DNA from: a virus
Length of the DNA: 64,000 bases
Virus record (IMG/VR): IMGVR_UViG_3300043411_001314
Location: 53,503-117,502 of that record
Direction: 5' to 3' (one strand)
Both the position numbers and the translations under genes were made by a program. Shown here one piece after another: positions 20,337 through 64,000 of this stretch. The first letter of the stretch is position 1. Every line of letters begins with the position of its first letter. Below the pieces are notes generated by a model. That model was not told the origin of the DNA, did not search any database, and saw only the letters and a list, made by a program, of their open reading frames with translations.

Positions 20337-21328
20337 CAGAAGTCCCCTTCCGCTACCTGCCAGCAGGGCAGGCCGAGTAGGCGCCACATGCGCACCACGC
20401 TGTTGCGGTCGTCGAACACGGCGGTCACGTGGAAGTGCGGCCGGATCCGCTCGGTGTAGATCTCGAGTTTGACCACCGAGTCCGGGCGCTGGTCGTCGCC
20501 GGCCCGCATCATCAGCTTGGCCCCCAGGAGCCGCTCCTCCTGGTCCCGGGTGAGGAGGCCGTCTTCCCGGGCCTTGGTCGTGGACTTCACGAACCAGTCG
20601 ACCGTCTGGCTCTCGTGCTTGTCGCTCCGACCGGAGCAGAGGATGACGTGCGGCTGGCCGGCCGCGGCTCGGGCCACCTGGACGTTGAACTTGTCCGTGT
20701 GGCAGTTGGCGGCGTCGTAGGGGTTGCGGCCCTGGTGGATGGCCAGGGTGCCGTCGAGGTCGACCAGGCAGGTCTCGGGGAGGGTCTCGTCCTGCCACAC
20801 CTGCAGCTTGGGCTTCGCCGGAGCGTCGGAGAGCAGGAGCTCGCAGGCTTCACGGGGGCTCAGCGTCTGCCAGCGGCGGAATCTCCCCCGGTTCTCAGCG
20901 GCCTCCTGGTAGATACGCCCGACGACATCGGGCCCGACGCTCTTGGGCCGGACCTTGTCTCGGTACAGGCAGTCCTGTAGGGGTACGTCGGTGAAGTCCA
21001 CGATGGCCACGTCCGCTTCGACGGCGATCATCCGTGAGATCCTCGCCGGCGTGGAGGGGTTGGCGTGCGTGTTGTGCACGATGACGTCACGGCCACGCGC
21101 CACGGCCTCGTACACGACCTGGTCGTGGACGCGCTTCACCAGCGTCTCGTCGATCTTGCCCATGCCGTCGACGAACGCCCTGCCGCGGTCGACCATCGAG
21201 CGGAGGTCGTCGAGCGACACCAGCTTCACCCGGCCGGCCGGCAGACCATCAGCGACTCCCTTGGCCCACGTCGACTTCCCGGACCCCGGCGCACCGCGGG
21301 TGAACAACACCACTGGGCGCCGACTCAT
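20336..21328 (-). CDS. pseT: polynucleotide 5'-kinase/3'-phosphatase (T4 PseT-like)
   Basis: P-loop GAPGSGKST, SLDDLR; HAD motifs DLDGT, SGR, FDDR; QVAEGDF end. Confidence 0.92.
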   Translation of the reverse strand: MSRRPVVLFTRGAPGSGKSTWAKGVADGLPAGRVKLVSLDDLRSMVDRGRAFVDGMGKIDETLVKRVHDQVVYEAVARGRDVIVHNTHANPSTPARISRMIAVEADVAIVDFTDVPLQDCLYRDKVRPKSVGPDVVGRIYQEAAENRGRFRRWQTLSPREACELLLSDAPAKPKLQVWQDETLPETCLVDLDGTLAIHQGRNPYDAANCHTDKFNVQVARAAAGQPHVILCSGRSDKHESQTVDWFVKSTTKAREDGLLTRDQEERLLGAKLMMRAGDDQRPDSVVKLEIYTERIRPHFHVTAVFDDRNSVVRMWRLLGLPCWQVAEGDF

Positions 21329-21792
21329 GACATCCCCATGTGCCGCGCCTGGAGGCTGCCAGAGTAGGCGGACCGATAGAGGGAGGCCAGGAACATCAGC
21401 ATGTCCCCGAAGGCCATGCCCTCCTCGACCGCCTCGTCGACGATGTCTAGGGCGGCGTCGATGTTGCCACCGGACAGCAACGTCAGGAGTCGGAGAACCC
21501 GCGCTTCGGCTGCCCGGGTGTGGTCGTCGAGCTCGATGATCTGCCCAGTGGTGGGGTGCTGGACCATCATGCCCTCCACCTCGATGGCTCCCCCTTCCGG
21601 GGAGCCGAGGGCGATCCGGATGTGGGGGAGGAGCAGCCGGGCCAGGGTGTCGATGGCGGCGATGCCGGTGATCACGTTCCCCAGGTTGGAGGCGGCTGCC
21701 ACGACTTCGTGCTCGTGGGGGCTGTCCTTGATGGTGGTGACGAGGGTGTGGACGGCCTTCATGTCCGGTTCGGGTTGGTCAGGGGGCATCAT
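21325..21792 (-). CDS. hypothetical protein
   Basis: Coupled at both ends (MMPPDQ...). Confidence 0.7.
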   Translation of the reverse strand: MMPPDQPEPDMKAVHTLVTTIKDSPHEHEVVAAASNLGNVITGIAAIDTLARLLLPHIRIALGSPEGGAIEVEGMMVQHPTTGQIIELDDHTRAAEARVLRLLTLLSGGNIDAALDIVDEAVEEGMAFGDMLMFLASLYRSAYSGSLQARHMGMS

Positions 21793-22925
21793 CAGGATCT
21801 CCAGTGAAAGGAAAGCTCGAGCTCGGGCCGGGCGGCTGCCCAGCATGCGGCTTTGAACTTGGTGGTGTTGCCGTCGAGCAACATGAACAGGAACGGTCGG
21901 TGCGGGCTGGCGGTTGCCAGCATGGCGAACTGCTTGCGCATGGCGCTGTCGTCTCGGATCTCGGGCGCTGGGGCGCCCATCTCCTGGAGGATGGCCCGGT
22001 ACGCCTTGAAGGCGCCACGCATCACCTCCCACTTCTTGTTGCGGATGGAACGGATCTGGTCGTTCAGCCAGCGCCGGAACTCGTCGGGGACCGTGTCGTA
22101 GAGCCGGTCCATGCCGGTGTCGGTCCGCAGGTAGTCCCAGACGGTCCGACTGGTGCAGCCGGTGAGGAGGGCGTAGAGGCGGACGTACTCGGCTTCCTTG
22201 GCTTTGGCCCGGGTCACGCCGTCGGCGGACACCAGCACGTACCCCTCGCTGTTCGGCCGTGACGGCAGGGACGGAAGGTCATGCGGTCCACCGAGGATGC
22301 CGAGCACCTCGACGCGGGCCCACGGCCACCAGTCGAACACCGGGTCGTGAGGGGAGGTGAAGTTCCCGGTGGCGATCTCGATCGCACCGAGCAGCCGGAG
22401 CTCGGCCAGCCGGCCGTAGTCCACCACGATCCGGTTCTCCGGGTAGATGATCTCGGCCAGGATGGTGTGCTCGGCCGGGTCGAGGTCGAACGGGAGCTGG
22501 TCACACAGTGGAACCCGCTCACTGAAGAGGTCGTTGGCGAACGCAGCCTGCTTGCCGGCGAAGGATCCCTTCGTGGCCCACCGGAAGCTCCCCTCAGCGT
22601 CGAGGTGGCCGACCCCAAGCGTTCCATCGGCTTTGTCGTAGGCGGTGACAGGTGGGGCCAGGTCGATCGGCCCGGCCGGCCCGTCGTCACCGTGCTCGCC
22701 CAGGTTGAAGAACTTGGGGAAGGGGCGAGCCACCACGGTCCCGTCGTCGGCCAGGATCAGCCCGCGACAGGTCCGCGTCACGTCGTCCCAGGCCCGGGTG
22801 AACTGGACCCGCTGGGTGTAGCAGTAGATGCTGAGCGGCTGCGTCGGGTGACGTTGGGCCCGGACCAGGCCCTGTTCGATGTGGCGCTCCAGCAGCTTGG
22901 GGTTGAAGAGCTCGTCGACCTTCAC
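21792..22925 (-). CDS. RNA ligase (T4 Rnl1 family)
   Basis: CRGLI...ARPFPKFFN, motif I KADG, EIIYPENRIVVDY, EGYV, KAK..EY. Confidence 0.92.
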   Translation of the reverse strand: MKVDELFNPKLLERHIEQGLVRAQRHPTQPLSIYCYTQRVQFTRAWDDVTRTCRGLILADDGTVVARPFPKFFNLGEHGDDGPAGPIDLAPPVTAYDKADGTLGVGHLDAEGSFRWATKGSFAGKQAAFANDLFSERVPLCDQLPFDLDPAEHTILAEIIYPENRIVVDYGRLAELRLLGAIEIATGNFTSPHDPVFDWWPWARVEVLGILGGPHDLPSLPSRPNSEGYVLVSADGVTRAKAKEAEYVRLYALLTGCTSRTVWDYLRTDTGMDRLYDTVPDEFRRWLNDQIRSIRNKKWEVMRGAFKAYRAILQEMGAPAPEIRDDSAMRKQFAMLATASPHRPFLFMLLDGNTTKFKAACWAAARPELELSFHWRS

Positions 22926-26876: not shown

Positions 26877-27220
26877 CAGAAGGTGCGCACCCAGATCCGC
26901 CCGACCAGGTCACACCAGTCGTAGAACTCGTCCCAGACGGCGTCGAACTCGTCCGTCGCTTCGGTGAGATCCCCCTCAGCCTCGACCGACAAGGCGTCAA
27001 GCTGGAAGAGGATGTCCTCGAGGTCGGGGTCGTGCTCGTCGAACCACGCGGCCTTCCTGATGCGGTCGGTGATCACCCCAGCCTTCGCCCATACCTCAGT
27101 GCTGTCGTCGTGGAAGACGTCGGACACGTCGAGTTTGCCGGCCCACGTCGGCAGCCCAGCTGCTCGTCGTTCCCCCGCTCGTGCGTGGGCGGCGATCTTC
27201 GATTCGATGGATCGTCCCAT
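26876..27220 (-). CDS. hypothetical protein
   Basis: Coupled; EFDAVWDEFYDWCD motif. Confidence 0.75.
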   Translation of the reverse strand: MGRSIESKIAAHARAGERRAAGLPTWAGKLDVSDVFHDDSTEVWAKAGVITDRIRKAAWFDEHDPDLEDILFQLDALSVEAEGDLTEATDEFDAVWDEFYDWCDLVGRIWVRTF

Positions 27221-28044
27221 CAGTCAGTCCACCCTTCTGCCCAGGTGAGGGCGAGCGTCTTGTTGGTGCGGCACGCATCGAGCTGGTCGATGGTGCACTC
27301 GTCGGGTCGCTTGTCGGTGCGGATCTTCTTGACCACGGGCTGGTACAGCCGGTTGTCGTCGGTGGCGTAGAGGCACTGGACCTCGATCACGTCGCCGGGT
27401 TGGGCGATGGGCCCATCACCGACGGTGCGGCCGACCTCGAACTCGGTCAGCGACGGACCGTCGAACACGCCGACGATCATGTTCTGCTTCTCGACACCGA
27501 GCGAGATCACCACGCAGTCCACGGTGTGTTGGCGCTTCAGCTTGACCCAGTCTCGGGATCGCTTGCCCTCCTGGTACAGGGAGTCGCGACGCTTGGCCAC
27601 GATCCCTTCACCACCGAGTCGACGAACCCGCTCAGCCATGGCCAGCTTGTCGTCGGTGGTGCCGGCGGCGGCCACCAGGAGGATGTTGGGGCGGAGCTCG
27701 GGCGACCAGCGGTCGAACAGGCCGTCCAGGAACTTGCGTCGGTGGTCGTAGTCCATCTCGGGCAGGTCGGCGATCTGGATGATGTCGAACACCACCAGCG
27801 TCTCGCCGATCAGCTCGCCGTCGATGGTACAGGCCATGAGGCAGCAGGACAGCTGCTCGAGCACGGGCTTGGGGAGGTACGTCGGGTTGCCGTCTCGGCC
27901 GTAGGGCTTGATGGTGGGTGGGTCGCCGGCGGCGATGTCGATGATGACACGCCGGCCATCCATCTTCAGCTCGGTGACCCAGTTGTCGTCGTTGAACACG
28001 TCGGTTCGTGGTGTTGCCGGTGTGGCAAGCATCGGGGTAGTCAA
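27220..28044 (-). CDS. minimal ATP-dependent DNA ligase
   Basis: PMLA, ELKMDGRR, IDGELI, VFDI, EGIVAK, WVKLK, OB domain. Confidence 0.92.
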   Translation of the reverse strand: MTTPMLATPATPRTDVFNDDNWVTELKMDGRRVIIDIAAGDPPTIKPYGRDGNPTYLPKPVLEQLSCCLMACTIDGELIGETLVVFDIIQIADLPEMDYDHRRKFLDGLFDRWSPELRPNILLVAAAGTTDDKLAMAERVRRLGGEGIVAKRRDSLYQEGKRSRDWVKLKRQHTVDCVVISLGVEKQNMIVGVFDGPSLTEFEVGRTVGDGPIAQPGDVIEVQCLYATDDNRLYQPVVKKIRTDKRPDECTIDQLDACRTNKTLALTWAEGWTD

Positions 28045-38796: not shown

Positions 38797-39630
38797 TCAG
38801 GCAGCCGTGGCGGCCAGGGCCCTGTCGAGCAGGGCGTCGAGGTCGAGGCCGGCGCTGGCAGTAGCAGCGGGGGCGTCGGCCGGGGCGTCACCGGTGGCTT
38901 CGGCGGCCACCTGGTCGATGGCGGCAGCCACGTCGAACGACAGCACCCCGGGATCCCAGTCCTCGAGGTGGCCATCCACGAACTGCGCCAGCTTGCCGAC
39001 GGTGGACTCGGCCACGTCGACCTCGATGACGTCACGATCAGCCAGGTCGTCGGGGTGGGCAAGCTCCTCCAGCACGAGCTGGCCGCCCCACACGCCGAGC
39101 CGGTACAGGCTGGGCGTGCCACGCAGTAGCAGCCGGCCCATCAGGACGACGTCGTTGCGCTTCGAGATGAGCTCACGCCAGACGGCGTACATCTCGACGT
39201 CGCGATCGGACACCTTCGAGCGGGTCTTGGAGGGGCGGAGGCGGTACGTCTTACCGGACGGCAGGACCTCGTTGTCCACCTGGTCGGCGGGGTACACGCT
39301 CAGTTCGAGCCGGCCCGTCTCCTTGCCGCCGGCCTTGGCGGTGGCGACCTTCTCGGCGTCGACCTTCACCAGCGTGCCGTCGGGCATCTCGCGGGCCCGG
39401 GCCACGTCGGCCGGCAGGTACGGGCCGTGCTTCTCGTCGTCGGGGCAGATGTAGCGCTGCTCCACCCGGACCGGGGTGGCGTGATCCTCGGGGCACACCA
39501 TGCGGGTGGCCGAGTCCTCGACCTTCTTGGGGCGACCTGTGGGCACCAGGTCGAACTTCATCTCGATGATGCCGATCGAAATCGACACCCCGGAGCCACC
39601 GGACCGTTGGGCTGTTGGTTCGTAACGCAT
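38797..39630 (-). CDS. ku: Ku-like DNA end-binding protein
   Basis: ISIGII...RVEQRYICP...VARAREM..GTLVKV...YRLRP...LEELAHPDD pattern of prokaryotic Ku core. Confidence 0.72.
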   Translation of the reverse strand: MRYEPTAQRSGGSGVSISIGIIEMKFDLVPTGRPKKVEDSATRMVCPEDHATPVRVEQRYICPDDEKHGPYLPADVARAREMPDGTLVKVDAEKVATAKAGGKETGRLELSVYPADQVDNEVLPSGKTYRLRPSKTRSKVSDRDVEMYAVWRELISKRNDVVLMGRLLLRGTPSLYRLGVWGGQLVLEELAHPDDLADRDVIEVDVAESTVGKLAQFVDGHLEDWDPGVLSFDVAAAIDQVAAEATGDAPADAPAATASAGLDLDALLDRALAATAA

Positions 39631-53681: not shown

Positions 53682-54020
53682 TCATGACTTCACCAGCCGT
53701 TCCATCAGATCCGCCAGCTCCCCCTCGGGGGCCTCGTCGGTCTCGCGCTCGGTGCCGTCATCGAAGTGGAACTGGGTCGTCCACTTCGTGCCGTCGTAGG
53801 CCACCAGGATGTCCGCCCGCTGGGGGACCTCGTCGATGGTGACCGTCGCACTGGAGATCACCACCACCTCGTCAGGGCGGTAGTCGGCGATCTCGCTGGT
53901 AGCGATCGCCGCTTCGAGGGTGGCGTAGGGATCGCCCTCAGCGACCGCCCAGATGTCCTCGTCCTCGCCGGCGCACCGGAAGGCGACGAGTGCGAATGCC
54001 TCACTGTTGTCGTTGCTCAT
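53682..54020 (-). CDS. hypothetical protein
   Basis: Acidic 112 aa. Confidence 0.65.
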   Translation of the reverse strand: MSNDNSEAFALVAFRCAGEDEDIWAVAEGDPYATLEAAIATSEIADYRPDEVVVISSATVTIDEVPQRADILVAYDGTKWTTQFHFDDGTERETDEAPEGELADLMERLVKS

Positions 54021-54057
54021 GTCATGGGTGTCCTCTCGTCGATGTAGTTGTCTGCAC

Positions 54058-54372
54058 TCAACGGTTCCACTCCCTGGTGAGTTGGGTGTTGCGCCGGCGG
54101 CAGCGCCGGGCCTCGGCCTCGAGGCGGTACGCTTCCTCCCTGAGCTCGGCGGCGTTCTCCTCTAGGGTCGTCGCCGAGGCAAGCGCCCCCTCGGCGAACC
54201 GGCGAGCCTGCTCGACCGACTCGGGGATGGTCCACCCGTCCGGGTCGACCCGATAGGTCTCCCCGTTGGGTCGCACGACGGTCGTGATGCCGTCGCTGTC
54301 GGTGGTCTCCGTCATGCGAGTCCCAGCACGGACCTTCTTGGACATGGCGATCGGATCGGCGTCCCAGGTCAT
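54058..54372 (-). CDS. hypothetical protein
   Basis: GGAGG RBS, coupled. Confidence 0.65.
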   Translation of the reverse strand: MTWDADPIAMSKKVRAGTRMTETTDSDGITTVVRPNGETYRVDPDGWTIPESVEQARRFAEGALASATTLEENAAELREEAYRLEAEARRCRRRNTQLTREWNR

Positions 54373-54662
54373 GCGAGCGCCTCCTCGAGCTCGTCAAGCG
54401 AGTGGACGCAGCAGTCCCGGGGGTCGATCCGCCCGTCGATGCGGGGCCACACGACCCCGAACAGACGATGGTCGAGGAACATCCCCGTGGTGACCTCGAC
54501 GATGTCTCCATCACTGGTGAACACGAACCCGAGCAACTCGGGGGTCATGGGGTTGTCGCCTTCGGGGCGATGGGGCATGCGTTCGGAGAGCCGGCCAGCG
54601 AAGCGAGCCCGGAACTCGGGCTCGATCACCCGCCAGTCGGTGGGATGCAGGGTGTCGTTCAC
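54369..54662 (-). CDS. hypothetical protein
   Basis: GTGA coupling. Confidence 0.65.
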   Translation of the reverse strand: MNDTLHPTDWRVIEPEFRARFAGRLSERMPHRPEGDNPMTPELLGFVFTSDGDIVEVTTGMFLDHRLFGVVWPRIDGRIDPRDCCVHSLDELEEALA

Positions 54663-55090
54663 TTGTTCACGATCCTTCCGTGCTTCTCGATCTGGTCGAT
54701 CAGGGCCTCAACCTGGGTGGGGGTCAGCCAGCCGTGGACATCGCCGATCTCTCCACCCGGTTCCTCCCAGTAGGCCAGTTCCCATAGGCCCTTCGACCCG
54801 CCGTAGCTGTAGGGGTGGCAGATCACCGACACCGTGATGTCCGGCCGGGTTGACGACCCGGACAGCTTGTAGCGCCGGGCGTCACCCCCGAACACAGGCT
54901 TGTTGCTGTCGGGGATGCGCCAGAACCCGTCGGTCAGTGGTGGTGTCGCCATCAGGTCACCTTTCTCGCCGTTGCCGGCGCTGTTGGACGATGCTTGCAA
55001 GGCCCGGCGGGCCGCTGCCAGGCCACGCCGGCCCGCCTCCTGGAAGAACTCGGGGATGGGCTCGGTGACCTTCACTTCGGTGACGTTCAC
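54659..55090 (-). CDS. hypothetical phage protein
   Basis: SVI....SYGG..GLWELA...DVHGWLT motif. Confidence 0.7.
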   Translation of the reverse strand: MNVTEVKVTEPIPEFFQEAGRRGLAAARRALQASSNSAGNGEKGDLMATPPLTDGFWRIPDSNKPVFGGDARRYKLSGSSTRPDITVSVICHPYSYGGSKGLWELAYWEEPGGEIGDVHGWLTPTQVEALIDQIEKHGRIVNK

Positions 55091-55629
55091 TCGGTCTGAC
55101 CGTGGTGATCCACGGCGTCGTAGGTACGGCAGGACATGATCTCGACGATCTCGTCCAGGTGGAAGGGGCGGAACTCGGGGTTGCAGTCGATGCCGACGTC
55201 CATCCGAGTGGTGATGGATGGGGCCAGGAACCCATGAGAGTGGCCGTGCAGCATCCACACTCCGTGATGGGCCCCGTTCCAGGTCAGGAGCGGGTAGTGG
55301 CAGAGCACCGCCTTGTTGGGCTTGGCCTTCCAGGTGTGGAGCTCACCAACCGACGTCCACGGCAGCCGCTTGGTGGCGTTGTTGTCGTGGTTCCCGACGA
55401 TCAGGTGCTTGCGGCCATGCAGGCGATGGAAGGTGCGGGCCTTGTCCTCGGGAGTCTCGAAGGAGAAGTCACCGAGCAGCCACACCTCGTCGCCCCGGCC
55501 CACCGTCGCGTTCCACCGCTCGATGATCGCCTCGGCCATCGCCTCGACGTCATCGCCGGGCCGGCTCGGATGGTGGCGCAGGATGTTGGCGTGACCGAAG
55601 TGCAGGTCAGCCGTGAAGAAGGTCTCCAC
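55087..55629 (-). CDS. calcineurin-like metallophosphoesterase
   Basis: ADLHFGH, LGDF, GNHD, CHYP, LHGHSH, DVGID. Confidence 0.92.
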   Translation of the reverse strand: METFFTADLHFGHANILRHHPSRPGDDVEAMAEAIIERWNATVGRGDEVWLLGDFSFETPEDKARTFHRLHGRKHLIVGNHDNNATKRLPWTSVGELHTWKAKPNKAVLCHYPLLTWNGAHHGVWMLHGHSHGFLAPSITTRMDVGIDCNPEFRPFHLDEIVEIMSCRTYDAVDHHGQTE

Positions 55630-55630
55630 G

Positions 55631-56119
55631 TCAGTCGTCCACCACGTTGACCCACTGGGACTCGGGGTCGTCGGCGTCCCCTTCGGCGTCCCACCAGCTC
55701 CCGGCGGCGGTGAAGACCCGCCACCCGCCATCGCCGAGCATGACCCGAGTGATGGGGCCCGCCGTCCGGGCCAACGCCCCGGGCCTCACCAGCACCTTGC
55801 CCCGGGCCTCGGTCGGGTGGCACCGGCGTGATGCCGGCGTCTGCAGCGCCGTCCGTACCGCTTCGGCGATGAACCGGAAGATGTCACCCGAGTCCTGGTA
55901 GTACTCGCCAGCCCTGCCTCGGTACCTGCAGAAGCAGTCGGCTTCGTGGCTCGGGAAGCCGGTCACACCTGAGCGGGCGATCACCGACTTCAGGATGCAG
56001 AGCATGTCGATCAGATCCTGCGGGTTCTCAGGTCTCCACGTCGACACCATCGCCGCCTGGAGCGCGCCGGCGTCGGAGTCCCGGAGTTCCCGGGTGCCCC
56101 TTTCCCATGCTGTGGTCAT
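55631..56119 (-). CDS. hypothetical protein
   Basis: GGAGA RBS, 162 aa. Confidence 0.65.
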   Translation of the reverse strand: MTTAWERGTRELRDSDAGALQAAMVSTWRPENPQDLIDMLCILKSVIARSGVTGFPSHEADCFCRYRGRAGEYYQDSGDIFRFIAEAVRTALQTPASRRCHPTEARGKVLVRPGALARTAGPITRVMLGDGGWRVFTAAGSWWDAEGDADDPESQWVNVVDD

Positions 56120-56635
56120 TCAGCTCTCCTTCTCGACGCCGATGAGCTGTGCCGCCAGGTTGGTGACCTCGGCGACGACGTAGGGCAGGTCCCGGTAGGT
56201 CCCGTACCCAGTGAAGCTGTCGAACCCGTAGCCGGGCATCATGTCGCCGGAGTGACCGCAGTCGAACCCGAACCACCAGACCGGGCGGCCGTCGTCAGCC
56301 AGGTGGCAGATGGAGTCCTCGCGGTCGCCGTCCTCGTCGCACCCGGCGGCGAAGGTGATGCCACCGTGGACGTCCAGGCGGTGGTCGGGGCTGTGGTCAC
56401 ACCAGGTCTCGGCGCACTGGATGTGCCTGGTGCAGTCGGAGTAGCCCTTGCCGTGCCACGGATGCCCCTCGGGGACGCCGACGTAGCCGCAGAGCGCCCC
56501 ACCGCCACCTCGGCGGATCATGGCGTCCAGGCCGGTGGCCTCGTCGACCCACACGGCCTTGTCGGGCTCGGCATCCCAGGGCCCGGCCGGCCAGCCGGTA
56601 CGGTCCACGGTGCGGTACTCCTCAGTGAAGTTCAC
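56120..56635 (-). CDS. hypothetical phage protein
   Basis: CGYVGVPEGHP...VHGGITF...WWFGFDCGH. Confidence 0.8.
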   Translation of the reverse strand: MNFTEEYRTVDRTGWPAGPWDAEPDKAVWVDEATGLDAMIRRGGGGALCGYVGVPEGHPWHGKGYSDCTRHIQCAETWCDHSPDHRLDVHGGITFAAGCDEDGDREDSICHLADDGRPVWWFGFDCGHSGDMMPGYGFDSFTGYGTYRDLPYVVAEVTNLAAQLIGVEKES

Positions 56636-56910
56636 AGCCACTCCTTCGGGGTGGGGCGGGCCACGATGACCAGCGCCGATGGTGCTTCCGCCAGGTTCGC
56701 CCACTTGTCGCTCGCCGGCAGGAACTTCTCGGCCGGGGCCCAAGGCCCGTAGCGGGGCGTCACCGAGTTGGAGCCACCGTCACCGAGCCAGATGTCCCAG
56801 TGCTCACCCTGCATGGACCGTTCGTACAGGAACCCGACGGTGACGAGCACCGCGTCCTTCGCCGGGAGGGACCGGCGGGTCTGATGGGGTGCGATCAGGG
56901 TCGTCATCAT
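56632..56910 (-). CDS. hypothetical protein
   Basis: Coupled. Confidence 0.6.
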   Translation of the reverse strand: MMTTLIAPHQTRRSLPAKDAVLVTVGFLYERSMQGEHWDIWLGDGGSNSVTPRYGPWAPAEKFLPASDKWANLAEAPSALVIVARPTPKEWL

Positions 56911-57242
56911 GCCCGGGCCGCCTTCTCGGTCTCACGGATGAACGTGACGTCCACCGTGGGATCGACGTGGAGCTCCCGGTCGATGGGGGTGTGGAACCCG
57001 GCCCGCTCGAGCTTGATGGCCCGCCGGCCGGCCTCGGCGTGGGCGTCGTACCCGTTCGGGTCCCGGTTGGCGGCCTTCTCGTGGGTGTAGCGCAGCGACA
57101 CCTGGGTGATGTAGCTGACCTCGTTGCCCTCGTCGTCGAACAGACCGGGCTTGTGGATGGTGACCTCGTAGATGCGGACGATCTCGGTGCGAGTCTCGTC
57201 GAGGTTGAGCGGACGCTCGTTGAGTAGGACGGATGCGGACAT
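56907..57242 (-). CDS. hypothetical protein
   Basis: AGAGGA RBS. Confidence 0.7.
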   Translation of the reverse strand: MSASVLLNERPLNLDETRTEIVRIYEVTIHKPGLFDDEGNEVSYITQVSLRYTHEKAANRDPNGYDAHAEAGRRAIKLERAGFHTPIDRELHVDPTVDVTFIRETEKAARA

Positions 57243-57288
57243 GATTGGTTCCTCTTTCGTTGGGATGGGGATGGATTGGCGGGTTAGA

Positions 57289-57564
57289 TCATGACGGAAC
57301 CGGCCCGTCGTAGGGGAGACCGGCGAGCACTCGACGGGCCTCCCGGCGGTACGCCTTGCGGGCGTCGGTCAGGTTGTCGAACGTCTGCCAGGACTCACGG
57401 ATGTAGCCGAACCGGGTGCCGGACGTGTGGTGCCGGCGAACATGCCAGCATCCTTCGAGCCAGAGCCGGACGCCCTCGACGGGGCCATCGGTCTCCTCGA
57501 TGTAGCCGCAGGCGAAGCCGTAGACCGTGACGGTGCCCGATGGGTTGGTGATGGCGGTGTTCAT
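57289..57564 (-). CDS. hypothetical protein
   Basis: T.YGFACGYIE motif, coupled. Confidence 0.7.
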   Translation of the reverse strand: MNTAITNPSGTVTVYGFACGYIEETDGPVEGVRLWLEGCWHVRRHHTSGTRFGYIRESWQTFDNLTDARKAYRREARRVLAGLPYDGPVPS

Positions 57565-58268
57565 GCGAGCCTCCCGGCGTGCAGGTACTGGTCGTGCATG
57601 AGCGGGGCGAACTCGGAGAGGTCGAGCAGCTCACAGATGAAGTCCAGGTCGTCGGCGATGTCGCAGACGGGGCCCGACCAGTCGATGGCCCGCCAGGTGC
57701 GGGTCACGTCGTCGATGAACTCCTGCTCGATGCCAGCCTTGCGGGCGATGTCGACGGCCCGCTCGTAGGTCAGGGCGGGGCACACCCCGAGCCGGCGAGC
57801 CTGCTCGGGATCGAGCTCGAGCTCGTCGGCGATCTCCTCGTTGACGGTCCGTCGCTCGCTCCGCGCCTGGTCGAGCATGGCGGCGATCCTCTCGGCCTCG
57901 ATGGCGGCCCAGTGGATGCGGGCCAGGTAGTTGTCGTCGTCGAGCCCGTCGCACCGCTCGGCGATCCAGTCACGCTCTCGCACCGCGTCGCTGAGGGAGC
58001 CGTTGCCGATCTCGTCGAACCATGCCTCGAAGGTCTCGTCGGCGGAGATGGCGTCGATCGCCACCAGCTTGTCCCACTTCTCCCAGTACCGCCGGGCCAG
58101 CCGATCCACCCGTGCGATGGCTTCTCGCAGGGTCATGTCGGGCCCGCCGTCCTCGCACGCTCCACACATGAAGTCGTAGCCGCAGCCGCCGACGTACCGC
58201 CCGTGCTTGCAGTGGTCGGCGGCTCCGTTGGCGTGGTAGGTGCCGTCGATGTTGGTGACGATGGTCAT
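57561..58268 (-). CDS. hypothetical protein
   Basis: CKHGRYVGGCG.DFMCGACE; GAGGAGG RBS. Confidence 0.75.
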   Translation of the reverse strand: MTIVTNIDGTYHANGAADHCKHGRYVGGCGYDFMCGACEDGGPDMTLREAIARVDRLARRYWEKWDKLVAIDAISADETFEAWFDEIGNGSLSDAVRERDWIAERCDGLDDDNYLARIHWAAIEAERIAAMLDQARSERRTVNEEIADELELDPEQARRLGVCPALTYERAVDIARKAGIEQEFIDDVTRTWRAIDWSGPVCDIADDLDFICELLDLSEFAPLMHDQYLHAGRLA

Positions 58269-58280
58269 GTCGGTGCCTCC

Positions 58281-58496
58281 TCAGGCGTTGGTGGGGATGG
58301 GGGCGTCCATGCCATCCGGCAGGATCGAGTTGGGGGTGGCGGCCGGGTGGATGTGGCCGCCGGTGATGTTGTGACGGGGGCAGACGTCGTAGCGTCCCAT
58401 GAAGCCGGCCCGTGAGTACTCGGCGTTCTCCATGCATGGCGTGTAGTCGCCGTTCAGCATCGAACAGCGGGGATGAGCGGTCTCTGGCGTGGTCAA
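58281..58496 (-). CDS. small hypothetical protein
   Basis: GGAGAGG RBS, TTG start. Confidence 0.5.
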   Translation of the reverse strand: MTTPETAHPRCSMLNGDYTPCMENAEYSRAGFMGRYDVCPRHNITGGHIHPAATPNSILPDGMDAPIPTNA

Positions 58497-58600
58497 CGGT
58501 TCCTCTCCTTCCCGATCCCGAGGATCAGATAGGCGATGGACATGGACAGCAGGATGATGGCGGGAGCGGCGTCCCACCCGGTGACGATGGCGTACATGGG

Positions 58601-58867
58601 TTATCCCTCCCCGCAGATCATGGCGATGGCCCCGTCAGCGGTCTCGTCGGTGTCCCCGACGCAGACCCAACGGTTCGGGTCGTTGACGGCCGTGTCCGGG
58701 TTGAGCTTGGTGATGTAGTTGCCGAACGTGTTGTCGAACACGGACAACCCGAGCGTGGCGTGCCCTTGCGGGAGCGCCAGGTGGACGTGGATGCCTCGCA
58801 GGTCACCCCAGCCGGAGTCGTCGTCGATCGGCTCGATCCAGGTGCCGAAGTGGTCAGCCCAGCTCAT
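58601..58867 (-). CDS. hypothetical protein
   Basis: 88-aa ORF in gene train. Confidence 0.6.
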   Translation of the reverse strand: MSWADHFGTWIEPIDDDSGWGDLRGIHVHLALPQGHATLGLSVFDNTFGNYITKLNPDTAVNDPNRWVCVGDTDETADGAIAMICGEG

Positions 58868-58868
58868 G

Positions 58869-59144
58869 TCAGCGACCCCCCGCCCGGACCCAGCCGGTCT
58901 CGGTCTCGACCCACTCGTCTCGGTACTCGTAGGCGTCCCAGTCGCCGAGCATCACGAGGAACGATGCCAGGTCGGTGATGTCACCCATCTCGACGTCGGC
59001 CCGCTCCTCGCACAGGACCCGGATGGCCCCGATGCTGGTGGGCAGGTACTTCTCGATGGTGCGCTGCAACACGTAGCCGCTGCAGCGGTACACCCCGTGG
59101 CCGGGGATGTTGGCGGAGATGATGGTCTCGGTGGGGTTGGTCAT
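58869..59144 (-). CDS. hypothetical protein
   Basis: GAGGAGG RBS. Confidence 0.7.
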   Translation of the reverse strand: MTNPTETIISANIPGHGVYRCSGYVLQRTIEKYLPTSIGAIRVLCEERADVEMGDITDLASFLVMLGDWDAYEYRDEWVETETGWVRAGGR

Positions 59145-59156
59145 GTCGGTGCCTCC

Positions 59157-59363
59157 TCAGGCGGTGATGGTGATGGTCCTCAGGTGGGCCTCGATGGCCT
59201 CCCAGTGGCGGACCATGGAGCGGGCGGTGTCCTCGTCCCCTCCCGGTTCGTCCATCGCCCGTTCCCATGACGATTGGATGGCGATGGCAGCCTCGATGGC
59301 GGCTGCGACGGACCCCTCGGTCAAGGCGAGCCGCATGGCTTCTTCAGAGATGCTCTTGGGCAT
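59157..59363 (-). CDS. hypothetical protein
   Basis: AAGGAGG RBS (MPKSIS...). Confidence 0.65.
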   Translation of the reverse strand: MPKSISEEAMRLALTEGSVAAAIEAAIAIQSSWERAMDEPGGDEDTARSMVRHWEAIEAHLRTITITA

Positions 59364-59491
59364 GACGTGCCCTCCTTCCGGGCGTTGGGTGATGCGGTTG
59401 ATGCGGGCCCCACCACTGAGGGTGGGGCGATGGGGACCCGCAGACGGGAACCGAAGGCTGCTCACTCACCTCGGCCCCGTGTTGATGGAAG

Positions 59492-59728
59492 CTAGAGCCG
59501 AAGCTCCTCCTCCTCGATCTCTCCGATGAGCTCACTAACGATGGCGGTGAGCAGCCCTCCAGGTCTGGCCGCGAGGCTGCTCACCTTGGCGAGGTGAGCA
59601 GCACCGCAGGATCCCCTGGTGCACTCGATCATCACCTTCCCGAACTCAGCTTCCTCGATGGTCAGCAGTACCCCGAAGGCTGTTGCCTCCGCACGGGCCT
59701 GCTCGATCTGTACCTGGGGCACGAACAT
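59492..59728 (-). CDS. hypothetical protein
   Basis: AAAGGAGG RBS (MFVPQV...). Confidence 0.65.
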   Translation of the reverse strand: MFVPQVQIEQARAEATAFGVLLTIEEAEFGKVMIECTRGSCGAAHLAKVSSLAARPGGLLTAIVSELIGEIEEEELRL

Positions 59729-59751
59729 GGCCCCTCCTTTCGATGTGATAG

Positions 59752-59822
59752 TGGTCCTGGAGAGAATCGAACTCCCACTGAGCGGTTGCCCGCTCGCCCC
59801 CACCGACTGGGGATTCAGGACC
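59752..59822 (-). ncRNA. tRNA-like RNA lacking an anticodon loop
   Basis: GGUCCUG/CAGGACC acceptor, D arm, GAGCGG-GCAA-CCGCUC, GGGAG-UUCGAUU-CUCUC T arm. Confidence 0.75.
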
Positions 59823-59831
59823 CAGTTCCCA

Positions 59832-60116
59832 TTAGGCGACGACTGCCGCCGATGGGAAGGCTTGTAGGACGAGGGCGATGATCTCCGCCACATCCTCGTC
59901 CGTCGCGTCGTCGTAGGTGGTGACGCTCGTGATGCCGTTGCAGCACGAGTAGTACCACTCGATGCGGTGGACGAGGACGTCGATGCGGTACGCACCGTTG
60001 CAGACCTCGCACGGGCAGGGCAACGATTCGAGGGCGGCGTCGAAGGCGTCGTCCTCCCAGTCGATGCCGGTGAACTTGACCTCTCGGGTCGGTTCGTCGT
60101 CGTCGATGTCTGTCAT
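59832..60116 (-). CDS. hypothetical protein
   Basis: CxCxxC...CC, 94 aa. Confidence 0.6.
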   Translation of the reverse strand: MTDIDDDEPTREVKFTGIDWEDDAFDAALESLPCPCEVCNGAYRIDVLVHRIEWYYSCCNGITSVTTYDDATDEDVAEIIALVLQAFPSAAVVA

Positions 60117-60120
60117 GGGC

Positions 60121-60495
60121 TTACCTGTCTTTCTTCATGGTGCCGATGAGCCAGCACCGGAACCGTTCGGCACGCTTCCGGTCAGGGTCGAGATCCTGGG
60201 CTGCGGTCATCAGAACGATGGCCTGCTCACGGAGATCCTCCGCCAGTGAACGATCTCGCTGGCGCTTGGTGCCCCAGTACTCCTTGGTGATGGTGACGTC
60301 GAAGGTGGCGACGCTCCGGGGATAGGTGAACCCGAAGGCGTCCTCGTCCTCCCACTCCTGCCTCACTTGCCCCACCCCGACTCCACTCGCCGGGTCTGGT
60401 TCATCCGGTCCCGGTAGTTCCAGTCGATGGCGATGCCGTGGATCGGCATGGCCGCCGTCCGGGGATGCTTGGGCTTCATCTGCTCTCGCAGCCAT
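60121..60495 (-). CDS. hypothetical protein (start uncertain)
   Basis: C-terminal half protein-like. Confidence 0.45.
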   Translation of the reverse strand: MAARADEAQASPDGGHADPRHRHRLELPGPDEPDPASGVGVGQVRQEWEDEDAFGFTYPRSVATFDVTITKEYWGTKRQRDRSLAEDLREQAIVLMTAAQDLDPDRKRAERFRCWLIGTMKKDR

Positions 60496-60515
60496 TCATA
60501 CATGGCGATGCCTCC

Positions 60516-60782
60516 TCAGGCGATGTTGCGGATGGTGAGACCGTTCGGCCGGCTCATGGCGGCCTTCGCCCGGTGCCGCGCCTTGTAGGGCTGCGATGCC
60601 ACGAACGATGCGATGCCGGCCAGCCAGCCCAGCTCGGGCGGTGTCACCGGATCGCGGTAGACGATGGGGAGGCTGTAGACGTCAGCCTCCCAGTCCAGGT
60701 AGTCAAGCTCGCTGTCCTCCAGCGATACGCCGATGGTGTCGGCGATGCTCACAGCACGCCGCAGTTCCTCGATGGTGTCCAT
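60516..60782 (-). CDS. hypothetical protein
   Basis: AAAGGAGG RBS. Confidence 0.7.
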   Translation of the reverse strand: MDTIEELRRAVSIADTIGVSLEDSELDYLDWEADVYSLPIVYRDPVTPPELGWLAGIASFVASQPYKARHRAKAAMSRPNGLTIRNIA

Positions 60783-60843
60783 CGTGGCCTCCTTTGGGTG
60801 ATGGGATCATTCCCCGGCCGGAGCCGGAGAAAGGTCACATCCG

Positions 60844-61116
60844 CCAAACGATACGAGCCTTCACCAAACGATATGAGCCGACACGTTCGGCGGTCCGCCC
60901 TGCTGACCAGGTGAACGGGGTGCGATGGGTCACCTTGCGCCACCTGAAGTGGCATGAACGATACGAGCCACGGTCACTCCGCACCCGGCCATCCCGGATA
61001 TGAGGGGATGGGCGTGATGCCTGTTGTGGTAACCGTGTTGGCCCGCTCGAAAGCTAGGGGTGATACCGCAAGAACCGAGTCCGGCCAAACGATAGGACGG
61101 ACCGCCAAACGATATG
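60844..61116. repeat. five direct CCAAACGATA(YGAGCC)-type boxes
   Basis: Copies at 60844, 60864, ~60954 (degenerate), 61085, 61105. Confidence 0.8.
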
Positions 61117-61123
61117 TCGTTGT

Positions 61124-61666
61124 GGTCCCAACCGCCCTGGGGCACCCCCAACCTTACGGATGGGGATAACCCGACGAGCTACTACAGGTCGTTCTTGCTG
61201 AGGATGCGGGGGCCGGAGGACGACGCACCACGGATGCAGCCGTCGATGTTGTACGTCGACGGCCCCATCTCGGTGAACCGCACCTGCAGGACCTTCTCGC
61301 CGTAGCCGTCGATGGTGACCTTGCCGGAGCCGCGGACTCGCCGCTGCCCCTTCTCCGTCACGTCCAGCTTCAGCGGGATGGTGACCCCACCGACCGAGAC
61401 GGCCTTCGGGAGCTCCGAGATGACCTCGGAGCTCACGTTCACGCCGTACTTGTTGTAGTACCGCGTGCCGTCGGCCTTCCGGTTGGTGATGCCCCAGTAG
61501 GTGTTGCCGTTGCGAGCCGTCAGCTGACGGAGCGGAAGGACGTCACCCGTGTTGGTCGTCACCTCGATGACCTCGGTGTTGTTGCTCATTGGACTGCTCC
61601 TTTTGGCACCTCCAGGGGCCCTGTATTGGGCCTGGTGGCTGGTGATGCCCCAGAGCGGTCGGGACC
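61124..61666 (-). repeat. 30-bp imperfect inverted repeat enclosing ORF 61182-61589
   Basis: 61124-61153 vs 61637-61666, 25/30 identical; 4 of 5 differences are G-U pairs on the minus-strand RNA. Confidence 0.85.
61182..61589 (-). CDS. hypothetical beta-rich basic protein
   Basis: AAAAGGAG RBS, strongly biased codons, 135 aa. Confidence 0.85.
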   Translation of the reverse strand: MSNNTEVIEVTTNTGDVLPLRQLTARNGNTYWGITNRKADGTRYYNKYGVNVSSEVISELPKAVSVGGVTIPLKLDVTEKGQRRVRGSGKVTIDGYGEKVLQVRFTEMGPSTYNIDGCIRGASSSGPRILSKNDL

Positions 61667-61670
61667 GTTC

Positions 61671-62240
61671 GTGAAGTCCGGGTGGCTTGCCATCTGACCG
61701 ACTCCGCCCCTTCCAAGCCCGGGTAGGTTCTCTTCCCTAAGCGAGGGGGTGCGTGAGCCAAGGGGTCGGCAAGCGGCCCTTTCTCCACTCCTGGTACTTC
61801 ACACTTCCCGTCTCCTCCCGATGTCTCCAAGGTTTCCCGATGCCAGGGGTGGCAGCTGAAGGTAAGGACCCTTCGTCAACTTGCCCCGTAGGGCGCGTAA
61901 ACACACTGCCCCTGACGCCTCGACCCATTCCGAGCCGGGTTGGTAGGTAGTTTCGTACCAGGTCGATTGCTCGGCCCCAGGTAGCTTCCGGGTTAGCTCT
62001 CAAGCAATCTTTCGGATCGGCGTAGTGTCCTCGCCGTCCTCAAACCCTGCGATGATCGAGACCTCAGGTATGGCACACCTGTTCTCCTCGAGGTGCCCGG
62101 TGTCCGTTGCCGGAGATGGGTTGACCTCAAAGCGGGTGGATCTCGCTTCGCACGACCGGGCTTGTCTCTGCCTCGGTGTAAAGGGGATTCGCCCTTGCCT
62201 GGCACGGACCCAGGTTTAGGGCTAGCTGGTCTCTTGCTAC
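61671..62240 (-). ncRNA. candidate large structured non-coding RNA (~570 nt)
   Basis: No credible ORF; more than 15 nested helices with G-U pairs, GNRA and UACG tetraloops and A-rich linkers on the minus strand. Confidence 0.65.
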
Positions 62241-62408
62241 CGCTCGACGTCGAGCGTCGAACGGACCAGCACGGCACCGGCACCACTCGACGTCGAGCGT
62301 CGAGCGGCTGGCACCGGCACCGGAGCCGCCGGAGCGGCACCGGCACCAGCACCAGCCAGCAACCACACAATCCGGCAAGCGAGCGACCGGCTCGACCGTG
62401 CCGTAACA

Positions 62409-62500
62409 ATCGGGACCCGATCCACCATGAAACACCATGAAAGTTTGTGAGTTTCGTAATGGTTTCGTAACGTAAACGTGAGGTTTCGTCACAGTTCGCG
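62409..62500. promoter_or_regulatory. AT-rich divergence point with short phased repeats
   Basis: CACCATGAAA x2; GTTTCGT at 62451, 62462, 62483; strand switch. Confidence 0.5.
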
Positions 62501-62549
62501 GACTAGAGTGGCGCTTGCAAGTCACCCACCAGCCAGGAAGGCACCAGCC

Positions 62550-63932
62550 ATGACAACCACCAGCACCAGGACCACCAGCAAGCGAGGCTCCGGCAAGGCT
62601 CGACCGGAGCGGCTCCGGCTCGACGTCGAGCCGGTGCCGGAGCACTGGCCAGCCGCCAGCAAGTCGAGCACCCTCGGGGAGCACGTCGCTTGGGTGCCGA
62701 GCACTGGCCAGCGCTGGCACGGCACCGACTCGACGACCCCGGACGGCGCGGCCATCGTCGGGTGTCACTTGCCGTGGCCACTGGACATGACGGGGAGCAA
62801 GCGAGTCTCGACGGCACTGGCTCGGAAGTTCGTCGGTGTCCTCTCGACGGACGTCCGACCGGAGCGACTGGAACAACTCGGCACACTGGCTCAATGGCAG
62901 CTTGCCGGAATCGGTGCCGTCACCGTGATCCGAGCACGTCGAGCCGGAGCGAGCGACCAGGACATCGCGCTTGCCGTGGCGAAGGCATGGCCAGAGGTGG
63001 CGCGAGCGCTCACCACGGCGCGCCAGCGCTCGGATGCTCGGAAGAACACAACGGCACGCGGCGAGCGCGGTCGAGCGGCTCGCGCCGTCGTGACGGCGAC
63101 CGCTTGCCGGTGCCGTCCCGACTCGGACGGCACCGTCCGGCGGCACCGTTGCATCCTGGCCATGCTCCGGCGCCCACTGGCCAGCACGTCGACCGCTCGA
63201 CGCTCGACCGCTCCGGTCGCCATCGTGCCGGTCGAGCACCGGAGCCAGTGGCAAGCGCTCCGGCTCGACGTCGAGCGGCTCCGGCTCGACGTCGAGTCGG
63301 CACGGTCGAGCGTCGAGCGCTGGCACGGTCGAGCCGGAGCGGCTCGCTCGCTGCTGGTCGACGTCGAGCACCAGGACTCGACCGCTCCGGCTGGCACGGT
63401 CGAGCACGTCGAGCGGCTCCGGCTCGACGTCGAGCGGCTCCGGCTCGACGTGCTCGCGACGGACCAGGACGTCGAGCGGCTCCGGCAAGCGGTCGAGTCG
63501 AGCGAGCCGGTCGAGCGCTCGACGTCGACGCTCCGGCTCGACTCGCTCGACTCGCTCGACTCGCTCGACGTCGAGCGTCGAGCGGTCGACGTCGAGCGGC
63601 TCCGGCTCGACGGCATCCGGCTCCGCTACCGGAGCAAGCGGCTCGGCAAGCTTGCCGACTCGCTCGACGTCGAGCGGCTCCGGCTCGCTGGCACGGTCGA
63701 GCCGGAGCGGCTGGCTCCGGTCGACGTCGAGCACCAGGACGTCGAGCGGCTCCGGCTCGACGTGCTGGCCAGTGAGCGAGCCGAGCGGCTGGCTCGGCTC
63801 CGGCTCGGCTCGCTGGCCGGTCGCTCCGGTGCTCGACGTCGAGCGCTCGACGCTCGACGTCGAGCGCTCCGGCTCGACGTGCTGGCCAGCGGCTCCGGCA
63901 CCGGCTCGACCGTGCTCGACTCGCTCGACTGA
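62550..63932 (+). CDS. hypothetical protein with VERLRLD repeats
   Basis: AGGAAGG RBS, ATG, terminator after stop; N-terminal half protein-like. Confidence 0.55.
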   Translation: MTTTSTRTTSKRGSGKARPERLRLDVEPVPEHWPAASKSSTLGEHVAWVPSTGQRWHGTDSTTPDGAAIVGCHLPWPLDMTGSKRVSTALARKFVGVLSTDVRPERLEQLGTLAQWQLAGIGAVTVIRARRAGASDQDIALAVAKAWPEVARALTTARQRSDARKNTTARGERGRAARAVVTATACRCRPDSDGTVRRHRCILAMLRRPLASTSTARRSTAPVAIVPVEHRSQWQALRLDVERLRLDVESARSSVERWHGRAGAARSLLVDVEHQDSTAPAGTVEHVERLRLDVERLRLDVLATDQDVERLRQAVESSEPVERSTSTLRLDSLDSLDSLDVERRAVDVERLRLDGIRLRYRSKRLGKLADSLDVERLRLAGTVEPERLAPVDVEHQDVERLRLDVLASERAERLARLRLGSLAGRSGARRRALDARRRALRLDVLASGSGTGSTVLDSLD

Positions 63933-63956
63933 CTCGACTCGACGTCGAGCCGGAGC

Positions 63957-63987
63957 GGCCCCCGGGGGTTTCCCCCGGGGGCCTTTT
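63957..63987 (+). terminator. intrinsic terminator
   Basis: GGCCCCCGGGGG-TTT-CCCCCGGGGGCC-TTTT. Confidence 0.8.
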
Positions 63988-64000
63988 CCGGTCTAGTTTG

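Follow-up and report, generated by a model that had tools for sequence, protein, structure and literature searches.

We analyzed a window of 64,000 nucleotides (nt), corresponding to bases 53503-117502 of a single 117,502-bp viral record of IMG/VR (IMGVR_UViG_3300043411_001314), with a focus on a repeat tract near its right end that is filled with copies of the 10-nt palindrome TCGACGTCGA and overlaps a + strand open reading frame (ORF) of 460 amino acids (aa) at 62550-63932. Positions are those of the window unless the genome is named. The tract forms the right end of the metagenomic contig, within 70 nt of the contig end, and has a G+C content of 73.5%, compared with about 66% for the genome. 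The record is classed as linear, no end repeats were found in it, and CheckV estimates its completeness at 80%; its first and last 3 kb have no repeat in common, direct or inverted, that exceeds 13 nt. The contig end at this locus is not a demonstrated genome terminus. An initial annotation of the window had placed the palindromes at a strand switch, and gene calls based on G+C at third codon positions (GC3) agree with it: the nearest predicted upstream gene (61182-61589) is on the - strand, as are most genes from 20336 onward, and the ORF is on the + strand.

The same annotation had described about 15 palindromes, often extended, embedded in DNA built from a small vocabulary of words, and the description holds in each of these respects, with all 15 coordinates matching exactly. 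The window has 15 copies of TCGACGTCGA; in 100 dinucleotide-preserving shuffles, the count averages 0.43, peaks at 3, and thus never reaches 15. The whole record contains 17 copies, 15 of them in its last 1.8 kb and only two, at genome positions 25229 and 25911, in the remaining 115.7 kb. Eight of the 15 copies are extended to the 14-mer GCTCGACGTCGAGC, which occurs nine times in the genome, and the successive palindromes are spaced by 43, 333, 645, 21, 72, 66, 95, 46, 21, 78, 57, 112, 21, and 85 nt. No part of the genome is less complex than the 600-nt windows at 63099-63399, where the number of distinct 6-mers per position is 0.30-0.40 (genome median 0.84), and the 20 commonest 4-mers account for 46% of the tract versus 22% genome-wide. 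Copies in three reading frames and on both sides of the ORF had also been reported; indeed, of 12 palindromes within the ORF, nine read [L/V]DVE, one reads STS (63519), and two read RRR (63833, 63854), whereas three lie outside it, two upstream (62244, 62287) and one (63939) starting 7 nt past the stop codon.

The palindrome is not the commonest word of the tract: GTCGAGC (29 copies), GCTCGAC (25), CGTCGAGC (20), and ACGTCGAGC (17) are all more frequent. In 8 of 25 cases, GCTCGAC is followed directly by its reverse complement GTCGAGC, and the junction is the 14-mer palindrome. TCGACGTCGA is thus the head-to-head junction GCTCGAC-GTCGAGC, situated inside a degenerate 21-nt, seven-codon unit, GAG CGG CTC CGG CTC GAC GTC (ERLRLDV), which was recovered by Tandem Repeats Finder (TRF) with a period of 21 and by the program find_repeats as the 12-copy repeat family D1. 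All 11 spacings of D1, from 62602 to 63763, are multiples of 3 (645, 21, 138, 21, 42, 78, 21, 21, 57, 72, and 21 nt), and the tract as a whole has sub-periods of 5, 7, 9, 14, and 21 nt. The non-palindromic part of the unit is one-stranded, as GAGCGGCTCCGG and CGGCTCCGGCTC each occur eight times and the 9-mer GAGCGGCTC ten times, with no reverse complement of any of the three. In Markov simulations trained on the tract, the mean number of palindromes rises from 3.5 at order 3 (0 of 500 runs reach 15) to 7.7 at order 4 (7 of 500) and 12.2 at order 5 (122 of 500). Since these counts approach 15 with rising order, what is in excess is a repeated unit of more than 6 nt, not the 10-mer as such.

Copies of the unit also agree in their synonymous codons. 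All seven ERLRL peptides are encoded by GAG CGG CTC CGG CTC and all 11 DVE peptides by GAC GTC GAG, at genome codon usages of 0.45 for CTC, 0.47 for GTC, and 0.35 for CGG. When the codons of the ORF were redrawn 2000 times according to the genome usage with the protein kept, 1.66 palindromes were expected versus 12 observed; together with the copies in three frames and outside the ORF, this bears out the earlier remark that the protein does not explain the palindromes. The same randomization yields 0.36 expected and 8 observed copies for the non-palindromic 12-mer GAGCGGCTCCGG, and 0.19 expected and 8 observed for CGGCTCCGGCTC. The identical codons in the repeat copies therefore point to recent DNA duplication that is not specific to the symmetric word, and the proposal that the palindrome is selected at the DNA level is not supported, as control words without symmetry are equally or more in excess. 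The copies can be accounted for without selection on the palindrome and look like a by-product of repeat growth.

Twelve of the 15 palindromes are located in the core repeat tract (63230-63958), a mosaic of direct and inverted GCTCGAC/GTCGAGC units, comprising direct families D1-D19 and 97 inverted pairs, that extends past the stop codon. A 36-nt inverted duplication (pair I2, 97% complementary) has one arm at 63562-63597 and the other at 63831-63866, the latter holding the two RRR-frame palindromes; a further inverted pair, I23, spans 23 nt at 100%. A + strand block of about 100-140 nt (63318-63462) is duplicated at 63686-63778 (alignment A1) with indels of 5, 30, and 17 nt. The two copies of this block differ in frame over roughly their first 27 nt, and the 5-nt indel then brings them back into phase, the start-to-start offset being 368 nt before it and 363 nt after it. 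With a main period of 21 nt, 9 of 12 in-ORF palindromes share one frame and 3 of 12 are out of phase. The stop codon of the ORF is itself a point variant of the 9-mer repeat GCTCGACTC, and the vocabulary continues for 26 nt up to a terminator-like hairpin. On the other side, a block of vocabulary DNA at 62230-62400 contains a 43-nt tandem duplication (62239-62323; TRF period 43, 2.0 copies, 86% matches) that carries the palindromes 62244 and 62287; no frame of this block has a positive codon log-odds, and it was judged to be non-coding.

The tract is strongly prone to form hairpins. Palindromes 21 nt apart at 63260-63300 can form a 17-bp hairpin or cruciform arm, and similar pairs are present at 63560-63600 and 63828-63870; folded as single-stranded DNA (ssDNA), the three pairs yield -20.8, -21.9, and -23.3 kcal/mol (z-scores -5.5, -5.1, and -5.8, respectively). 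In general, adjacent palindrome pairs form stems of 13-17 bp with z-scores of about -5 to -6. The upstream duplication folds as ssDNA with -24.9 kcal/mol (62239-62310; z -3.6), and the RNA fold of the core tract has an energy of -551 kcal/mol versus -428 kcal/mol for shuffles (z -16).

A tract of this kind at a contig end could be an assembly artefact, that is, a mis-joined or collapsed repeat, and we compared the locus with contigs, not reads, from other assemblies. Unitigs of X1, which may be the source sample, match 61000-63855 with 0 differences except for one 33-nt fragment with 3 differences, and a single 434-nt unitig (63422-63855) covers eight palindromes. The unitigs break at 63286, 63445, and 63855, as expected at repeated 31-mers; the copy number of one loop is ambiguous owing to stretches of at least 30 nt that are identical, at about 63254-63290 and 63413-63450. 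The unitig depth is lower toward the end (34.5, 7.9, and 2.2, one figure per contig). Run X2, which belongs to another study, contains a collinear relative that is 92-98% identical over 62277-62598, 62952-63570, and 63721-63891. The tract is therefore reproduced in contigs of X1 and of a collinear relative, and the misassembled repeat that was to be checked for is a highly improbable explanation; the tract is real.

The relatives further show that, of the 3 kb examined, no part evolves faster than the tract. To the left of 61982, in the neighboring gene and the leader, X2 has 9 differences in 637 nt and 4 in 369 nt, whereas within 62277-63891 it has 21 in 322, 24 in 313, 9 in 152, 8 in 152, and 8 in 171 nt. 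The divergence is thus 5-8% in the tract compared with 1-2% in the neighboring gene and intergenic DNA. A similar picture is provided by X3, with 0-1 differences in 61000-61613 and with 10 differences in 156 nt and 9 in 151 nt within the ORF. One palindrome, at least, is lost in X2, where changes at 63838 and 63843 convert the copy at 63833 to the non-palindromic tandem word GCTCGACGCTCGAC; X2 also has a different hairpin after 63936. Indels within the ORF in X2 and X3 are either +3 nt (62555, 62572, and 63366, the last of these being an insertion in X2) or a compensated +1/-1 pair, whereas upstream indels in the relatives are of 1 nt each (61914, 62274, 62477, 62481, and 62522), X2 having a 1-nt insertion behind 62274.

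The indel pattern bears on the question of whether the ORF is translated. The ORF could instead be an accident of a stop-free vocabulary that encodes no protein, the locus being non-coding repeat DNA that may give rise, between the promoter-like region and the terminator, to a long structured RNA or may be junk, and several features would suit such an origin: (i) over 63230-63929 only two stop codons occur in all six frames, and an ORF of 535 aa is also open on the - strand; (ii) duplicated blocks are read in different frames; (iii) the stop codon is a variant of the repeat, beyond which the vocabulary continues; (iv) the RNA fold is strong; and (v) no homolog, family, or confident fold was found. 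For comparison, a 700-nt frame has 4 stop codons on average genome-wide, and only 7.8% of such frames are stop-free. Against an accident, no uncompensated frameshift is present within the ORF in the relatives versus five single-base indels upstream, and all D1 spacings are multiples of 3. The ORF frame also has the best codon log-odds of all six frames in four segments covering 62550-63800 (0.21, 0.06, 0.40, and 0.54), including the less repetitive half, where its 0.21 and 0.06 stand against -0.13 to -0.62 in the other frames; the 25th percentile of predicted genes, used as a yardstick, is 0.15. In the last segment (63800-63932), the ORF frame scores -0.01 versus 0.14 for a - strand frame. The G+C content by codon position is 0.76/0.56/0.84, and the same 460-aa product is present in the source database (P0001). 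The evidence is mixed and leans toward coding: the ORF is probably translated, and an accidental origin appears doubtful, although it deserves some weight.

Candidate signals for expression of the ORF were read from the flanking DNA. A putative ribosome-binding site, AGGAAGG (62535-62541, + strand), ends 8 nt before the ATG at 62550, and a putative -10 hexamer, TAGAGT, is located at 62504-62509; a consensus promoter scan found nothing. The ATG at 62550 is favored over a GTG at 62478 because the five indels at 61914-62522 in the relatives are single bases. Just upstream of the -10-like hexamer are three direct repeats GTTTCGT[A/C]A[C/T] (62451, 62462, and 62483, together 62451-62492 on the + strand; spaced 11 and 21 nt), which are the sole matches to this word in the 64-kb window, with 0.27 expected, and are candidate operator or promoter elements of the ORF. 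On the other side of the ORF, a hairpin that resembles an intrinsic terminator (63957-63987, + strand) starts 25 nt past the stop codon and consists of a 12-bp G+C stem and a TTT loop followed by TTTT; the 46 nt that hold it (63950-63995) fold as ssDNA with -21.8 kcal/mol (z -5.2). Its position just past the stop codon, like that of the ribosome-binding site, argues against an accidental frame. In the RNA run X6, contigs cover 61000-61560 at 100% identity, and inside the ORF other contigs matched only as pieces of 24-35 nt.

The predicted protein has a less repetitive N-terminal part of about 230 aa and a C-terminal part of about 230 aa made of degenerate heptads (V-E-R-L-R-L-D), with V and L at positions a and d and R and D at positions e and g. 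An AlphaFold2 model built from the single sequence, with no alignment, places long helices only in the repeat half (residues 231-273, 282-317, 335-379, and 395-446), with a predicted local distance difference test (pLDDT) score of 46-79 by 10-residue block. No homolog was found by megablast and tblastn against 50,697 phage records, and both a word-indexed search with the N-terminal 240 aa (8000 candidates scored) and an exhaustive phmmer search against 1.84 billion representatives returned the protein itself only. No match was obtained among shorter proteins of 30-252 aa or among PDB sequences, and no family in Pfam and PHROGs; the ESM Atlas offered no usable feature match, and its structure matches had template modeling scores of 0.35 or less. 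Peptide-pattern scans for relatives of the locus, made in viral contigs with the ORF and two neighboring genes and in metagenome contigs with the ORF, produced none as DNA, nor did a search of metagenome contigs with a 24-nt conserved intergenic word. Rfam gave sub-threshold chance matches only (best 27.7 bits versus a gathering score of 70).

One reading, along the lines of the initial annotation, is that the palindromes form a functional array of DNA sites, the ORF being secondary: they would be binding sites of a dimeric phage or host protein such as a regulator, a small terminase, or a ParB-like protein, targets of one of the DNA methyltransferases of the phage, or cruciform elements, with a role in packaging or the recognition of termini, in partition, in replication, or as binding decoys. 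The concentration of 15 of 17 genome copies within 1.7 kb, their presence in three frames and outside the ORF, and the stems formed by adjacent pairs accord with this reading, as do the divergent intergenic region that the tract abuts and the C5 and N6/N4 DNA methyltransferases encoded by the phage. A weak Ku-like protein and ligases of the same phage would, by analogy to the mycobacteriophages Omega and Corndog, fit a linear genome with defined ends. The repeat structure argues otherwise, since the non-palindromic flanking words are equally amplified and on one strand only, at least one copy is lost in X2, and the palindromes show no helical phasing beyond the 21-nt tandems. Of the claim of a DNA-level array, the DNA-level repeats and their tendency to form hairpins are retained, whereas the site function is not supported, given the co-amplified flanks and the lost copy. 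A site function is probably absent, and a site array is an unlikely explanation.

As for the individual functions proposed for such an array, the supposed terminus of a packaging region (pac or cos) is only a contig end of a linear-class record: terminal repeats are lacking, and the only terminase-like match in the genome is weak and distant (genome 22366-25341). Among the 16 predicted genes at 53682-61589, all scanned with Pfam and 15 of them also with PHROGs, no ParA/ParB, terminase, or replication initiator was found. ParA/ParB families are likewise absent from Pfam and PHROGs scans of a part of the proteins (53 and 30, respectively, from the window and 50 and 18 from the left half), and a parS-like centromere array is not supported. 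Nor is an iteron origin, as the initiator-like gene (genome 33085-34179) and the DnaB gene (genome 40513-41841) are more than 70 kb from the tract, which is rich in G+C and not in A+T. The tract is also no CRISPR array, its spacings of 21-645 nt being irregular and its "spacers" made of the same words.

The suggestion of a decoy array was addressed by an avoided-word scan, in which the palindrome and its sub-words showed no avoidance and no enrichment beyond the tract. There, GACGTC (96 observed versus 108.8 expected), GTCGAC (144 versus 160.3), and CGACGTCG (22 versus 21.1) are near expectation, and TCGA is over-represented. The truly avoided words outside the tract are ATCGAT (0 versus 40), AGGCCT (0 versus 38.7), and AAGCTT (0 versus 12.6), which suggests restriction avoidance, and there is a shortage of CTAG and CGCG as well. 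The genome's one AAGCTT is found inside the repeat tract, at 63648. Among the papers listed for the 10-mer TCGACGTCGA, none appeared relevant from title and abstract opening, and those listed for repeats at actinophage genome ends contained nothing relevant either.

To place the tract among similar loci, we determined how often the palindrome clusters elsewhere. A scan of 2.9 million viral contigs yielded 117 stretches in which two copies fall within 34 nt, and among 119 loci fetched besides that of the window no array has a comparable density, the maxima being 8 copies in 8.6 kb and 5 copies in 3.8 kb. When one genome was taken from each of 185,579 bacterial and archaeal species, at least 120 loci had three copies close together, with up to 16 copies per 1.8 kb. 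Among the matches listed, 352 of 424 spacings within bacterial clusters can be divided by 3; several arrays repeat every 21 nt, encode heptads such as ESAVDVD or GRLIDVD, and have several open frames. The scan therefore indicates that dense palindrome clusters are a common by-product of tandem repeats in high-GC DNA.

The tract is of a known kind, a probably coding tandem repeat whose copies have identical synonymous codons and vary in sequence and length between relatives. It resembles the bacterial coding repeats at loci L197, L141, and L213 (ESAVDVD type) and L144 (GRLIDVD, Chondromyces apiculatus) in its 21-nt period, in the origin of TCGACGTCGA from x-D-V-D/E in GC-rich codons, in its several open frames, and in spacings that are mostly multiples of 3. 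It differs from them in being more degenerate, in combining direct and inverted copies and several sub-periods, in extending beyond the ORF, and in residing in a phage; the ERLRLDV unit was found in none of seven translated bacterial array loci. Ohno is said to have described "internally repetitious coding sequences" with open alternative frames, and the tract is like them in that a stop-free oligomer produces long ORFs in almost all frames and copies are read in different frames; unlike in those repeats, nothing here points to a functional protein from an alternative frame. The phage arrays of protein-binding repeats, such as the P1 pac hexamers with GATC, parS, iterons, cluster A stoperators, and the 17-bp palindromes of cluster O, share with the tract many copies of a short, often symmetric word. 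Their words are conserved in relatives, placed next to genes of the cognate proteins or spread relative to them, and not part of a longer amplified unit, whereas the tract has flanks amplified along with the word, a relative has lost one copy, and the scans of nearby genes found none for a cognate protein.

A parallel for the mutational side is provided by quasipalindrome and short-range template-switch mutagenesis, as outlined in two reports (PMC7202029 and PMC8794818). The features in common are inverted short copies beside a palindromic core, creation or extension of hairpin stems, and clustered changes. Unlike in those cases, the mechanism at the present locus is deduced from the anatomy only.

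Taken together, these observations lead us to favor, with a probability of roughly 60%, a young repeat tract driven by slippage and inversion that overlaps a fast-evolving, probably translated orphan gene. The tract would be an unstable, minisatellite-like repeat whose growth as DNA is due to replication slippage and to switching of strand or template at its self-complementary core, and the orphan gene that overlaps it would have its own promoter region and terminator. The basic word would be GCTCGAC with its reverse complement GTCGAGC, whose head-to-head joining creates the sequence containing TCGACGTCGA. Read in frame, the palindrome is L-D-V-E in preferred codons (CTC GAC GTC GAG), and because CTCGACGTCGAG reads LDVE on both strands, inverted copies would be tolerated within the ORF. 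The slipping units would be of 5, 7, 9, 21, and 43 nt. Amplification of the 21-nt unit, of 7- and 9-nt sub-units, and of blocks of about 100 nt in both orientations would multiply the palindrome together with its non-palindromic neighbors. Out-of-frame copies would result from inverted (I2) and frame-shifted block duplications, and the upstream copies from the 43-nt tandem duplication. Nearly all six frames would be open because the vocabulary is almost devoid of TA and TGA; one of them (62550-63932) is probably translated, and the C-terminal half of the protein would be helical and heptad-like.

Several observations weigh against this explanation. With respect to the coding potential, the +3-nt indels are located in trinucleotide-like runs, where slippage alone would produce them; even 62550-63229, which is less repetitive, has three of six frames without a stop codon; the GC3 of the ORF is 0.84 versus about 0.87-0.93 in the strongest genes; and the AlphaFold2 model is poor (mean pLDDT 48.7). 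With respect to the palindrome, it occurs in at least five different left and right contexts and is more "universal" than any single flank, as selection on the core would also produce. Two palindromes lie in non-coding DNA upstream of the promoter region, and such copies, together with the hairpin-forming pairs, are the anatomy expected of protein- or structure-based sites. The conservation of palindromes in the relatives was read from 40 listed of 89 differences, with most copies not readable. Finally, an unrelated 48.8-kb phage contig of IMG/VR, G001, has a GCTCGACGT-based array at its end, which could imply that such arrays do something, and a site array would gain by this similarity.

The G001 contig (loci L044 and L127-L129) starts inside a (ACGTGCTCG)n tandem array and has 42 of its 43 GCTCGACGT copies in its first 2.3 kb (L044 / L127:1-2400). 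Like the tract, its array is low-complexity DNA made of GCTCGACGT, ACGTCGAGCACG, and GTGCTGGCAC words, to which GGCCCCGGCCCC is added in G001. Unlike the tract, it is apparently mostly intergenic, as judged by stop codons and small ORFs; it flanks small ORFs, and genes for a primase and a helicase follow 2-4 kb downstream. BLASTP (E<=1e-5) detected no similarity between the proteins of G001 and those of the present genome. The location of the array at a contig end fits assemblies that break at such repeats, and would also fit a recurrent element.

A more speculative and rather improbable view is that the tract is a hairpin or cruciform DNA array, serving, for example, in the recognition of the termini or the protection of the ends of a linear Ku-dependent genome or as a platform to which its own protein binds, or else a gene being born from a stop-free palindromic repeat. 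If it were true, GCTCGACGT-based arrays such as that of G001 would mark a recurrent class of elements in high-GC phages, and the tract would represent a new kind of structural DNA element or a de novo gene birth in uncultured actinophage-like viruses. The favored explanation, a young repeat tract overlapping an orphan gene, describes a phage accessory locus that would evolve several times faster than its neighbors through slippage and inversion of short units. It also carries two cautions: in high-GC DNA, TCGACGTCGA equals L/V-D-V-E in preferred codons, and therefore any amplified repeat that contains it mimics a "site array"; and a stop-free vocabulary mimics genes in six frames.

The virus itself is an uncultured, high-GC phage that may be actinophage-like; it has no close relatives among 50,697 deposited phages. 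Its genome encodes a DnaB helicase, RecT, YqaJ, SSB, an initiator-like protein, a clamp, a MoxR ATPase, a RuvB-like ATPase, DNA and RNA ligases, PNKP, two DNA methyltransferases, tail genes, a head-protein match, a weak Ku-like match, and 8 tRNAs. The Ku-like match (E 1.6e-4, below the Pfam cut-off), the ATP-dependent DNA ligase, PNKP, and the RNA ligase are encoded by the - strand genes at 38797-39630, 27220-28044, 20336-21328, and 21792-22925, respectively. This set of end-joining and RNA-repair genes resembles that of Omega and Corndog. The methyltransferases are an N6/N4 DNA methylase (L124:2602-3798, + strand; E 1.2e-26) and a C5 cytosine methylase (L124:6638-7774, - strand; E 3.9e-57).

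Several minor features were observed at and outside the locus. Between the neighboring - strand gene and the tract, a 650-nt stretch (61590-62235) lacks a coding signal in any frame and is 1-2% diverged in X2, less than the adjacent ORF; its RNA fold has a z-score of -3.7 on the - strand (20 shuffles) and -1.1 on the + strand, and it may be a structured leader or a non-coding RNA of the leftward operon. A 51% G+C viral contig (L027:3930-4110) has four ATTTCGACGTCGAAAT-like 16-mers within 170 nt, apparently intergenic, and looks like a genuine operator or iteron array with the same core. The second lowest-complexity region of the genome is a coding tandem repeat at genome 15629-15855 (L124:15629-15855), in which 18.9 copies of the 12-nt unit CCCTGGCCGCAC encode (G/D)AA(R/W) tetrapeptides; the 431-aa protein, which has them close to its C-terminus, matches phrog_8332. 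The gene at genome 22366-25341 (L125:3366-6341, - strand) encodes a 991-aa protein with a match to an intein splicing domain and weak matches to ribonucleotide reductase and the terminase large subunit. At the N-terminus of this protein, a copy of the repeat unit (genome 25207-25255; 29 nt at 93% identity) reads EPLDVE on the - strand, and may be either the seed of the repeat or a chance similarity.

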